From the sequence record PZ583739.1: DNA of 64,000 bases. One strand, given 5' to 3'. Positions within the stretch are counted from its first letter, which is position 1; each line of letters starts with the position of its first letter. The DNA is from a phage. Of the stretch, positions 19,494-23,470 are shown in pieces. Under the pieces are notes generated by a model. It made no database searches, was not told the origin of the DNA, and was given only the letters and a program-made list of their open reading frames with translations. The position numbers were made by a program, and so were the translations under genes.

Positions 19494-20715
<1,222 letters not shown>

Positions 20716-20743
20716 AATAATTTCCCCAATTTTATAATCCGTA

Positions 20744-20777
20744 GGAGCATTATACTCTGCTCCCATGAGTTTGTACA
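20744..20777 (-). promoter_or_regulatory. early promoter embedded in stem-loop (PeSL-like)
   Basis: Minus strand TGTACA, 17 nt, TATAAT; inverted repeat ggagca/tgctcc brackets the -10 box. Confidence 0.5.
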
Positions 20778-20881
20778 CTACTTTCCAAAAAGACCTTGAA
20801 CACATAAAGTGGCCGCAATTCCAAAACAAAAACAGAATGCACCAAATCTAACAATATCCCAACCAAGGCTACAGTTCTCTA

Positions 20882-21172
20882 TCATTTACAACGTTCCTCT
20901 TTTAGTTCAGAACGATAATAACATAACATACCTTTTTGGTCATGTACATATCTTTTTACATCATTCATCCAAATCCGGAATTCTTGCGATGCTTCAAAAG
21001 GCATACCAACCCAGGCTTGACCCTCAATTACCTTAACTTCCCATTGCTGTTTGTAATCAGCCAATGCAACAGGCCAATTGGGATGAACTTGGATTGTGGG
21101 CTCCACAACGGGCTTCTGGGCACATGAAACGAGTCCAATAGCCAAACATACTGCCATGATAGATTTCATCAT
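20882..21172 (-). CDS. o-spanin (outer-membrane lipoprotein spanin subunit; pseT.2-like)
   Basis: 96 aa; signal peptide with lipobox LVSC; 4-nt overlap with the upstream i-spanin gene. Confidence 0.7.
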   Translation of the reverse strand: MMKSIMAVCLAIGLVSCAQKPVVEPTIQVHPNWPVALADYKQQWEVKVIEGQAWVGMPFEASQEFRIWMNDVKRYVHDQKGMLCYYRSELKEERCK

Positions 21173-21522
21173 TTGGTGAGCTCCTGGAAGTCCCGGGCGA
21201 ACTTATCAAAAGACTGATTAATCTGTTTTTCAACTAATTTAGGCTTCGCTACCACAACCTTAGTACGTTTTGCATCTGCACGGAGTTTATCATTTTCCTT
21301 CTGCAGAAGTTCAACATATTCCTGCCGCTCCTGGTCAAGGAGATTAATTTGATTAATTTGGTCTTTTACTGATTGCAGATTTTTCGCGTTATCTTCTGCA
21401 ACTTTGGTGACCGCAGCCACCTCTGTCTTGAGATTATCTACTTTTGCTTTTAGATAGAAACCACTACCAGCAGTTACTACCAGGGCGAGCATAAGCCCTG
21501 CAGTGAGATTACTTATTTGCAT
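21169..21522 (-). CDS. i-spanin (inner-membrane spanin subunit; pseT.3-like)
   Basis: 117 aa; N-terminal transmembrane segment LTAGLMLALVVTAGSGFYL followed by a long coiled-coil-like region. Confidence 0.7.
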   Translation of the reverse strand: MQISNLTAGLMLALVVTAGSGFYLKAKVDNLKTEVAAVTKVAEDNAKNLQSVKDQINQINLLDQERQEYVELLQKENDKLRADAKRTKVVVAKPKLVEKQINQSFDKFARDFQELTK

Positions 21523-22016
21523 AACTTGATGATTACCTCAACAATATCATCCTGGGATAAACCATTCAGGAGGATGTGATTTGTACTGTCAGACGCTGAA
21601 ATGCGGAACTGATTACCAACTTCATCCGCCATATCATCCTGGGTTAACACTGGGTGTTTAATTCCCAGGCGGTGTTGAAGTGTCAGGGGTTCAACCACAA
21701 CATAACAAACACATCCATTGATATGTACATTAGGTTGGGTCTGGTTAATGAACACTTCTGCATCATATTTAACCAAATGGTTCTTTAAGAATTCAACCAT
21801 TTCAGGAACAGATTCATGCAGTGCTTCTTTCCGCTCTTCTGATTTTTTATCGCGATATTCTTTTTGTTTCGCCTTCAACTTTTTGTTAGAGGCGAGTTTT
21901 TTCCGCAGGTCAGTCATAAGACCAATTTTCTTGGTCCCTTTATAGACATAAATTCCGTCATGACGGTCACCATATTCATTGACAATCATTTCATTTGAAA
22001 TCAGTTGCATATCCAT
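21513..22016 (-). CDS. alc: Alc-like protein (assignment by position and size only)
   Basis: ATG at 22014-22016 gives 167 aa (T4 Alc is 167 aa); lies between rnlA and the spanins as T4 alc does. Confidence 0.4.
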   Translation of the reverse strand: MDMQLISNEMIVNEYGDRHDGIYVYKGTKKIGLMTDLRKKLASNKKLKAKQKEYRDKKSEERKEALHESVPEMVEFLKNHLVKYDAEVFINQTQPNVHINGCVCYVVVEPLTLQHRLGIKHPVLTQDDMADEVGNQFRISASDSTNHILLNGLSQDDIVEVIIKLCK

Positions 22017-22029
22017 AATATTTTCCTCA

Positions 22030-22263
22030 TTAGTAGCGGTTATAACCCCGGGGACCAAAAGAGTTGGCACCCAGGCGCTCATCTTTCTTTTTGGCTCTTG
22101 CTCTAAACCCGGAATCACCTGTTTGAGCTTTCAGTTCTTTTAACAATTTGGCCTTTAGGTCAGTAATGAAACCAATCCGGCGGTCTCCCTTATAGACATA
22201 GATTCCATCATTTCTGTCACCATATGCCTTTGTAACTCTGTCATTTGTAATTAAGTTTAACAT
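22030..22263 (-). CDS. short paralog of the Alc-like N-terminus
   Basis: 77 aa; MLNLITNDRVTKAYGDRNDGIYVYKGDRRIGFITDLKAKL parallels MDMQLISNEMIVNEYGDRHDGIYVYKGTKKIGLMTDLRKKL of the downstream gene. Confidence 0.45.
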   Translation of the reverse strand: MLNLITNDRVTKAYGDRNDGIYVYKGDRRIGFITDLKAKLLKELKAQTGDSGFRARAKKKDERLGANSFGPRGYNRY

Positions 22264-22294
22264 GTTTTGGTCCTCATCAGTAGTTGATGGAACC

Positions 22295-22332
22295 ATTATG
22301 TATAGAAAGAAGGGGCTTGTACACCCCTTTTT
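22295..22332 (-). promoter_or_regulatory. terminator hairpin overlapping early promoter (PeSL-like)
   Basis: Minus strand gggg-tgtacaag-cccc hairpin with T-run after the rnlA stop; TGTACA, 17 nt, CATAAT, then leader caactactgatgaggaccaaaacATG. Confidence 0.5.
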
Positions 22333-22333
22333 A

Positions 22334-23470
22334 TTATTCAGGAAGGATTACTTCCGCCTGGTAGTCTAACGGAATGTAAAGTTTATGATTTTTAAGGAAA
22401 ACTTTATTGATTTGAGCAATCGTTTGTTCAGTTTCCTGTGGGCGTTGATAGGTGTTCATTAATACGGAGAACAATCCCGGATATGGTTTACATAACTCTT
22501 GACCTTTAATCGCAAACTCGCGACGGTCTTTTCCTGCTAACTGTTTTTGTGCATCAAGCAACAGTCCAAGAGTGTTGGACAGATAATCCAGATGTGTTGC
22601 AGTAAAGGCAGTAACTTTTTCACGAGCATAAGTATCGCCAGTAAACATGGCAATAACATCATCCGCGCCGCCAGCAACAACAACTTCAAACAGTCGCTCA
22701 TTATTATTAATGGAGTCTTTAGTATGATGCAGAGCACAATACCATTCTGTTTTCATCTTGAACTTCTGACCGTTAGCCATCTCATAGACGAAGCCTTCAA
22801 TCTCTTTCATACCGCGAACATTCTCAATGGTTGCCGGGTCATATGCTTCAACCAGGAAAGGACGAAGCGCTGCATCTTTGAACAGCTCCTGATAAGGAAT
22901 ATATTCACCAGTTTCATTATGACGAACGTTCAGTAAAATCAGGTCACGTTCCTGGTAAGGCAAAACAATGCGGTTGGTCGGTGCAACATATTCCATGTTG
23001 CATGTATAACCAGCTTCAGTGATTTCAGTCACACGAGCCCTGAATGCACTGCGATGTTCTTGTTTAAACACCTGCAAGGATTCAGCTGCTTGGGAGCTTT
23101 TGATTGACCCTTTGGATTTAAAGGCGATATTGGTCTGGTCCATATAAGTGGAAACCAAACTACCATCAGCTTTTGCAGTAACCAGGACAACTTCATCAAG
23201 GTTAAGGTCCATGGTCATTGGATTCTCACCCAGATTAAAGAATTTTTCCATAGGACGAGCAGCAATGCGAACTGGACCATTGTCATCCATTTCAAACATA
23301 ATGCCACGGCACTCCAGCGCATCATCAAGGAGCCAATCACTATAGGAAGCATAGTTATAGCTAAAGATGCGGAACTTAGTTTCAAATGGAGAAACAAAAT
23401 CCGTATAGAAAAACTTACCTTTATCAGATTCGGCGCAAAGCTTCATTAAGTTATCATATAATTCAATCAT
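22334..23470 (-). CDS. rnlA: RNA ligase 1
   Basis: 378 aa; FRIFSYNYASYSDWLLDDALECRGIMFEMD and KADGSL (adenylation lysine motif) match T4 Rnl1 (gp63). Confidence 0.9.
   Translation of the reverse strand: MIELYDNLMKLCAESDKGKFFYTDFVSPFETKFRIFSYNYASYSDWLLDDALECRGIMFEMDDNGPVRIAARPMEKFFNLGENPMTMDLNLDEVVLVTAKADGSLVSTYMDQTNIAFKSKGSIKSSQAAESLQVFKQEHRSAFRARVTEITEAGYTCNMEYVAPTNRIVLPYQERDLILLNVRHNETGEYIPYQELFKDAALRPFLVEAYDPATIENVRGMKEIEGFVYEMANGQKFKMKTEWYCALHHTKDSINNNERLFEVVVAGGADDVIAMFTGDTYAREKVTAFTATHLDYLSNTLGLLLDAQKQLAGKDRREFAIKGQELCKPYPGLFSVLMNTYQRPQETEQTIAQINKVFLKNHKLYIPLDYQAEVILPE

Follow-up and report, generated by a model that had tools for sequence, protein, structure and literature searches.

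The phage protein Alc terminates transcription on cytosine DNA via the RNA polymerase, and the paf mutations that block its action map to residues R368 and P372 of the polymerase beta subunit. The mechanism of Alc has been an open question since 1993 and no structure of the protein has been deposited. Here we describe alcb, a short gene that lies directly upstream of alc in a 64,000-nucleotide (nt) stretch of phage DNA (record PZ583739.1; in the following 'the window'), which belongs to a Gaprivervirus, i.e. a T4-like phage of the VR7/SP18 type. The 2.4-kilobase stretch around the gene is 99.0% identical to that of Yersinia phage vB_YenM_P8 and 91-99% identical to that of 33 other records of the genus. 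As a public annotation alcb is already known: i) in Shigella phage SP18 it is SP18_gp241 (alcb, 'similar to N-terminal region of bacteriophage JS98 Alc'), with alca beside it; ii) in VR7 it is VR7ORF243c (VR7_gp243, 'similar to T4 Alc'); and iii) in many newer records both alcb and alc are named 'inhibitor of host transcription'. The AlcB family is collected in PHROG 17715, which matches the product of the window over positions 1-77 of 77 (E=9.1e-54). All these entries concern the same gene, as they share its position between rnlA and alc and an identity of 94-100%, which is also the range found between AlcB of the window and the 16 relatives compared below. In Escherichia phage 212 (L014, PQ765507) the product names are shifted by one gene, and alcb is labelled 'RNA ligase' and rnlA 'endonuclease'. 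No study of the function of alcb or of the domain mapping of Alc was found in the literature.

Our analysis identifies alcb as, very probably, a functional and selectively maintained protein-coding gene and, judged by its sequence relationships, as the outcome of a tandem duplication that copied only the 5' end of alc, with its leader, ribosome-binding site and N-terminal module. The sequence-only reading of the window had noticed that the first about 45 residues encoded by a 77-codon open reading frame (ORF) parallel the N-terminus of Alc, and this parallel is borne out: the peptides that it quoted equal the translations, and both ORFs lie on the minus strand at the coordinates it gave. In a BLASTP comparison the first ~45-60 residues of AlcB match the N-terminus of Alc (31/64 identities, E=6e-17). 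The Pfam family ALC (PF17527) is recognized in AlcB with 40.3 bits (cut-off 25) over profile positions 3-62 of 177 only, the product of alc itself reaching 164.9 bits across the whole profile, and PHROG 1253, the Alc family, is recognized with E=6.5e-13 over positions 3-63 of 169. At the nucleotide level the local alignment of alcb and alc scores 62, against 19.5 ± 2.5 (maximum 32) for 300 codon shuffles. The codon-aligned identity is 59% over 132 nt and 45% at third positions, and because the latter value is so low the duplication is old.

The similarity of the DNA is not confined to the coding sequences: it reaches upstream of both start codons and through the Shine-Dalgarno (SD) sequences, where GGTTCCATCAACTACTGATGAGGA in front of alcb and GGTTATAACCGCTACTAATGAGGA in front of alc are identical at 18 of 24 positions. 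As a check on chance, 17 or more matches are reached by 5 of the 63,976 24-mers in the window. The second leader copy now serves two genes: the final residues and the stop codon of alcb lie in it, and so does the SD sequence of alc (GAGGA, 22028-22024). Since the similarity extends upstream of both starts, the duplicated unit carried the leader, the ribosome-binding site and the first codons together. The tandem partial duplication of the alc N-terminus that had been proposed for this locus is thus upheld by the adjacency of the copies, by the similarity of protein and DNA including the ribosome-binding site, and by a parallel case in phage G28.

That parallel is found in Tequatrovirus vB_EcoM-G28 (L040, NC_054916, 1300-2001), which has a perfect 351-nt tandem duplication at the rnlA-alc junction. 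The repeat covers the 3' end of rnlA, the early promoter, the SD sequence and alc codons 1-48, an intact alc follows downstream, and the product of the extra copy (KMC08_gp179) has 63 amino acids (aa), namely Alc residues 1-48 and 15 residues of out-of-frame rnlA. Like alcb it is an ORF that holds the N-terminal module only, precedes an intact alc and goes back to a tandem copy of part of alc, its 5' end. Unlike alcb it is independent and either very recent or an artefact of assembly, since its copies are 100% identical, occur in one genome and show no sign of selection; moreover, its repeat includes the promoter and the rnlA 3' end. Unless the G28 repeat is an assembly artefact, the rnlA-alc junction can duplicate in this way, and alcb at its birth may have resembled it.

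The N-terminus of Alc was detected by translated search in 797 of the 50,697 records of the phage collection, and a second Alc-like place in 36 of those 797, which are the Gapriverviruses and two records of phage G28. Among the metagenomic contigs, three whose Alc is 76-77% identical to that of the window (L017, L018 and L019) have a 77/78-aa gene of the ALC family between rnlA and alc; these AlcB copies are ~50% identical to that of the window and retain all the invariant residues of the Alc N-terminal module. The gene is absent from the contigs L020-L025, with 59-64% identical Alc, and from T4 and G8. Synteny in related phages, which the sequence-only reading had named as a check, is kept: alcb lies between rnlA and alc in the window, in its Gaprivervirus orthologs such as those of SP18 and VR7, and in L017-L019. 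An exhaustive HMMER search among 1.84 billion representatives recovered AlcB, Alc, the G28 fragment and six large repeat proteins, and no further lineage; the six were dismissed as compositional artefacts, and the three of them that were scanned each match many unrelated Pfam families and have no significant stretch. A word-indexed search for AlcB-like proteins returned two clusters. When the AlcB alignment was run against viral and metagenome contigs, it brought up one more near-identical copy (L030, 97%) and Alc N-termini, and no new lineage.

A phylogeny of the N-terminal module was not informative, since 50 residues do not suffice: with an identity to every Alc of 38-61%, AlcB has no clear nearest neighbour. 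The signature GIYVYKG is common to AlcB and the Alc of its own clade, and this signature and the shared tail, taken alone, argue for a single duplication within the lineage. The distribution of alcb likewise indicates a single origin of the gene, in the common ancestor of Gaprivervirus and a small number of metagenomic sister lineages, and its retention ever since.

Selection on alcb was assessed over 17 genomes (the window and 16 relatives), in which rnlA diverges by up to 13%, by pairwise Nei-Gojobori ratios of nonsynonymous to synonymous divergence (dN/dS). The alcb ORF is intact and exactly 77 codons long in 17/17 genomes at a synonymous divergence of 11-19%, and most of its variation (17 of 23 variable sites) falls on third codon positions. 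The dN/dS of alcb (0.11) equals that of alc (0.11) and pseT.3 (0.11), that of rnlA being 0.075. Within the genus the two parts of the protein differ: residues 1-45 have a dN/dS of 0.33 and residues 46-77 one of 0.03 (synonymous divergence 0.19). Two alternative reading frames were rejected. An 88-aa ORF (22296-22030) would start at an upstream ATG that overlaps the -10 box, and in 8/17 relatives a TAA separates that ATG from the real one. The N-terminally extended alc of some GenBank records (189-201 aa) does not conserve its amino acids, and a stop codon closes the extension in L019; the constraint therefore belongs to the alcb frame. Such a false extension of alc, overlapping alcb and open by chance, is annotated in L003 (P8), L010 (UPEC01), L011 (CJ20) and L016 (DCP80).

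These data bear on the suggestion, also made in the sequence-only reading, that alcb could be a duplication remnant, that is, a non-functional copy still open by chance. Partial duplications of the junction do occur, the 63-aa product of G28 looks accidental, and one metagenomic variant (L026) has a frameshifted tail. A remnant would not, however, be expected to stay intact in all 17 genomes compared while variation accumulates mostly at third codon positions, to show a dN/dS as low as that given above, least of all in the tail, or to be retained in lineages that are ~50% identical, with an invariant motif and a conserved ribosome-binding site. The conservation data effectively refute this explanation, and we regard it as scarcely credible.

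The short ORF had further been credited with a promoter and an SD sequence of its own. The SD sequence stands (GAGGA, 7 nt before the ATG); the promoter is not private to alcb, since it corresponds to the shared, ancestral early promoter of alc. Relatives with and without alcb have a site of the T4 early type, GTTTAC(A/T)-17-TAnnAT, directly after the stop codon of rnlA, and positional homologs were found in L017, L019, L020, L021, L024 and T4. As judged from this arrangement alcb is the first cistron behind the ancestral alc early promoter. Because alc follows after a spacer of only 13 nt, with its SD sequence directly behind the alcb stop, the two genes are most likely co-transcribed as one early unit. 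The -35-like hexamer of this promoter sits in the loop and 3' arm of the terminator-like hairpin of rnlA, so that terminator and promoter overlap. In the 17 genomes the rnlA-alcb spacer has ~5 variable positions in ~71 nt, a conservation far above that of synonymous sites.

A part of this spacer is predicted by RNAfold to form a hairpin, GGUUCCAUCA-ACUAC-UGAUGAGGACC, in which the SD sequence of alcb is paired (-12.0 kcal/mol and z=-4.6 in the window). Equivalent hairpins with different arm sequences are predicted for L017 (-10.5 kcal/mol, z=-3.6) and L019 (-13.3 kcal/mol, z=-5.6), and among the three alcb-bearing lineages three base pairs immediately 3' of GAGG have changed in a compensated manner. 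In lineages that lack alcb the hairpin in the alc leader is weak or absent, and the SD sequence of alc behind alcb is predicted to be unpaired. In the T4 genes e, soc and I-TevI an mRNA hairpin masks the ribosome-binding site on read-through transcripts and leaves it free on transcripts from the proximal promoter. The alcb hairpin is like these in that it pairs the SD sequence and has its 5' arm between the -10 box and the expected transcription start; it is unlike them in that the proximal promoter is of the early and not the late type, and in that the hairpin is supported by folding and by compensatory changes in three lineages. Since the SD-pairing part of the 5' arm falls between the -10 hexamer and the expected start, we infer that the proximal transcript lacks this arm. 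AlcB would then be translated only from transcripts of the proximal promoter, whereas on read-through transcripts the SD sequence of alcb would be masked and Alc would still be translatable.

The same arrangement could be read in another way, with alcb as a cis-acting leader ORF of which the act of translation matters, through coupling to or control of alc, and not the peptide. The alcb stop 13 nt before the ATG of alc, the alc SD sequence directly after that stop and the predicted masking of the alcb SD sequence are all in keeping with a leader ORF. Its amino acids are nevertheless conserved while synonymous sites vary (dN/dS 0.11; tail 0.03), its motif is invariant at ~50% identity, the SD sequence of alc is predicted to be unstructured and could work alone, and most Alc-bearing phages manage without such a leader. 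We therefore consider a purely cis-acting role very unlikely.

What the peptide itself may do was approached through predicted structures. An AlphaFold2 model of Alc, based on an alignment of 22 sequences, has a predicted local distance difference test score (pLDDT) of 92 and consists of a helix (8-15), a beta-hairpin (23-33), a very long helix (34-80) and an alpha/beta domain (87-166). The AlphaFold2 model of AlcB repeats the beginning of this architecture: a helix (7-14), a beta-hairpin (22-32) and a helix (33-53), with a pLDDT of 76-92 for residues 1-50. The last helix runs into the tail, which is predicted to be disordered from residue ~54 (pLDDT about 50). AlcB keeps all the invariant residues of the Alc N-terminal module (I, G, DGI, G, DL) and lacks ~110 residues of Alc, namely the entire C-terminal alpha/beta domain and all but the first ~20 residues of the long helix. 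The full Alc architecture (N-terminal module, long helix and C-terminal domain, ~165 aa) is thus not present in the 77-aa AlcB. A search for structural neighbours of the N-terminal module alone gave none that were informative. Since AlcB lacks the C-terminal domain of Alc, which is similar to the double-wing domain by which MotA binds DNA, it is unlikely to terminate transcription on cytosine DNA by itself. Altogether, AlcB resembles T4 Alc in its N-terminal module (~45-60 residues, with all invariant residues), in its neighbourhood between rnlA and pseT.3, in its position behind the early promoter, as is usual for the Alc family, and in its leader. It differs in its basic tail with the motif GxNSFGP, which is found in no Alc.

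AlcB has a mass of 8.8 kDa and an isoelectric point (pI) of about 10. Its tail has a pI of 10.5-11.6 and ends in an aromatic residue, and the last 28 residues of AlcB are identical in 33 of 34 phage records. The motif is kept in the ~50% identical copies of L017, L018 and L019, whose tails follow one invariant pattern, G-F...R-x-G-x-N-S-F-G-P...N-(K/R)-(F/Y) at the C-terminus. With the window translated in all six frames, the motif is found a single time, within alcb, and no peptide similar to the 28-aa tail was found elsewhere in the phage collection. We also considered that the tail might be frameshifted alc; this origin was rejected, as a comparison of three AlcB tails with all three frames of six alc genes gave a best z of about 3, from short gapped matches.

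In the function that we propose, the shared module would dock AlcB where the N-terminal module of Alc binds, i.e. on the host RNA polymerase near beta R368/P372 or on Alc. Docked there, AlcB would modulate or extend the shutoff of host transcription by Alc, and its tail motif would recruit or block a second partner. The role of decoy or regulator suggested in the sequence-only reading is thus plausible. By analogy AlcB can be compared with the truncated paralogs known as 'microprotein' regulators, small proteins that titrate a larger relative, or its partner, by way of an interaction module shared with that relative. AlcB likewise keeps a module of interaction size, has lost the putative effector domain and is encoded beside its parent; it is unlike simple dominant negatives in having an extra conserved motif, which these do not need. 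That AlcB acts on the axis of Alc and RNA polymerase, docking through the shared module, is a tentative assignment to which we give somewhat less than an even chance. The explanation taken as a whole, in which alcb is duplicated and maintained, modulates Alc and RNA polymerase and is controlled by an SD-masking hairpin, we rate as evenly balanced between right and wrong.

Several points weigh against it. The docking role of the N-terminal module is an analogy. With 9/12 positions the promoter is a weak match, and the region holds no more matches of this kind than expected from shuffled sequence. RNAalifold gave no consensus hairpin across all Alc-bearing lineages, and the hairpin is accordingly claimed for the three alcb-bearing lineages. 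The alcb of the metagenomic contig L026 (2440-2667, ERZ27275844 k141_9694) has a 34-nt deletion in its tail and a frameshift; the resulting variant has 75 aa with a new C-terminus that overlaps the start of alc, and represents either an allele that has lost its tail in nature or a fault of the assembly. The isolate EAWsc9 (L007 2720-2740) has a weakened SD sequence, GCGGA instead of GAGGA, the change falling on the bulged base of the hairpin. Unless they are sequencing errors, the last two cases imply that alcb can be damaged in nature.

The pattern of constraint within the protein invites a different view of its function, in which AlcB has been neofunctionalised away from the axis of Alc and RNA polymerase and the basic, disordered tail, with GxNSFGP and the C-terminal aromatic residue, is its business end. 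The tail could then bind nucleic acid or a host protein that has nothing to do with the shutoff, or it could serve as a decoy to a host sensor, and the N-terminal module would be no more than a folded scaffold. In agreement with such a role the tail is the most constrained part of the protein within the genus (dN/dS 0.03, compared with 0.33 for residues 1-45), its motif is invariant across lineages, it is strongly basic (the pI values given above) and a similar peptide is found in no other phage protein. A mere scaffold would, however, not be expected to keep every invariant residue of the Alc module in all AlcB lineages, and alcb stays attached to alc in one transcription unit. We consider the tail-centred role unlikely, though it deserves to be taken seriously.

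A third view of the function starts from the DNA chemistry of the phage genus. Two surveys reported that the Gapriverviruses keep alc, denA, denB and the gene for dCTPase and lack deoxycytidine monophosphate (dCMP) hydroxymethylase, and called this unexplained. In VR7 (L027, HM563683 18000-42000) the genes 42, beta-gt and alpha-gt are absent at their syntenic positions (uvsX-imm and 47-55), and the phage does have alc, denA and further genes directed against cytosine DNA. AlcB might then be an antagonist or specificity modifier of Alc, by which a phage without hydroxymethylcytosine can keep Alc and not terminate its own transcription. Besides the retention of alc, denA, denB and the dCTPase gene in the absence of gene 42, and of the glucosyltransferase genes in VR7, the restriction of alcb to this genus within the phage collection fits such a role, as does the layout of AlcB, since a shared module that lacks the putative effector domain is the classic form of a dominant negative. 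The association nevertheless comes from a single lineage. The Acinetobacter phages ZZ1 and 133 and some Aeromonas phages, reportedly without modification enzymes, have no second Alc-like place, the expression of AlcB and Alc from the same early transcription unit would be odd for an antidote, and Gaprivervirus may simply carry an undiscovered DNA modification. We hold an antagonist of this kind to be quite improbable. The same slim chance is given to a more specific version, in which AlcB is a dedicated partner or antagonist that re-tunes the Alc-loaded RNA polymerase, with the GxNSFGP tail as a new contact. If it were true, AlcB would allow the Gapriverviruses, which have neither dCMP hydroxymethylase nor glucosyltransferases, to transcribe their own genome. 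The confinement of alcb, among sequenced phages, to a genus without hydroxymethylcytosine is a coincidence within a single lineage, yet it is the most interesting lead: the surveys single out this one T4-like genus as paradoxical, with Alc, DenB and dCTPase present and the hydroxymethylcytosine pathway missing, and the gene could bear on that puzzle.

Under the preferred explanation, in which alcb is a maintained duplicate that may modulate Alc and RNA polymerase, AlcB represents the N-terminal module of Alc as separated by evolution and kept under selection, and would be a ready-made reagent for finding what that module binds. If AlcB should turn out to be a minor accessory protein, the locus would amount to a well-documented example of how a gene is born in a T4-like phage, through partial tandem duplication.

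Table 1. Features of the rnlA-pseT.3 region of the window, listed in the direction of transcription.
Feature	Position (strand)	Description	Basis
rnlA	22334..23470 (-)	RNA ligase 1, upstream neighbour	Pfam RNA_lig_T4_1 and T4_Rnl1_C; named rnlA in SP18 and VR7
Terminator-like hairpin	22310..22329 (-)	AAGGGGTGTACAAGCCCCTT followed by CTTTCT, just past the rnlA stop	Consensus scan; nearly invariant in 17 genomes
Promoter-like site	22295..22323 (-)	TGTACA-17-CATAAT	Scan (9/12) and positional homology
SD-pairing hairpin	22269..22294 (-)	GGUUCCAUCA-ACUAC-UGAUGAGGACC, 5' arm directly after the -10 hexamer	RNAfold
SD sequence of alcb	22271..22275 (-)	GAGGA, 7 nt before the ATG	Kept in 16/17 genomes
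alcb coding sequence	22030..22263 (-)	77 aa and stop	ORF, Pfam ALC, PHROG 17715
AlcB residues 1-45	22129..22263 (-)	Alc-type N-terminal module	AlphaFold2 and conserved residues
AlcB residues 46-77	22033..22128 (-)	Basic tail without counterpart in Alc	
AlcB residues 65-71	22051..22071 (-)	Motif G-A-N-S-F-G-P	Invariant
Second leader copy	22024..22047 (-)	GGTTATAACCGCTACTAATGAGGA	18/24 identical to 22294-22271
alc (alca)	21513..22016 (-)	Full-length 167-aa Alc	Named alc or alca in relatives
pseT.3	21169..21522 (-)	Rz-like i-spanin, downstream neighbour	Annotation in SP18, VR7 and P8

The order of the genes on the minus strand is rnlA, the 77-aa ORF (alcb), alc and then the spanin genes pseT.3 and pseT.2 (Table 1), and alc overlaps the start of pseT.3 by 10 nt. 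Further downstream, the interval between pseT.2 and pseT (window about 20400-20880; at about 4120-5090 in L001-L016) is a variable spot, where the sets of small ORFs differ among the Gapriverviruses, hypothetical proteins of 100-180 aa being present or absent.

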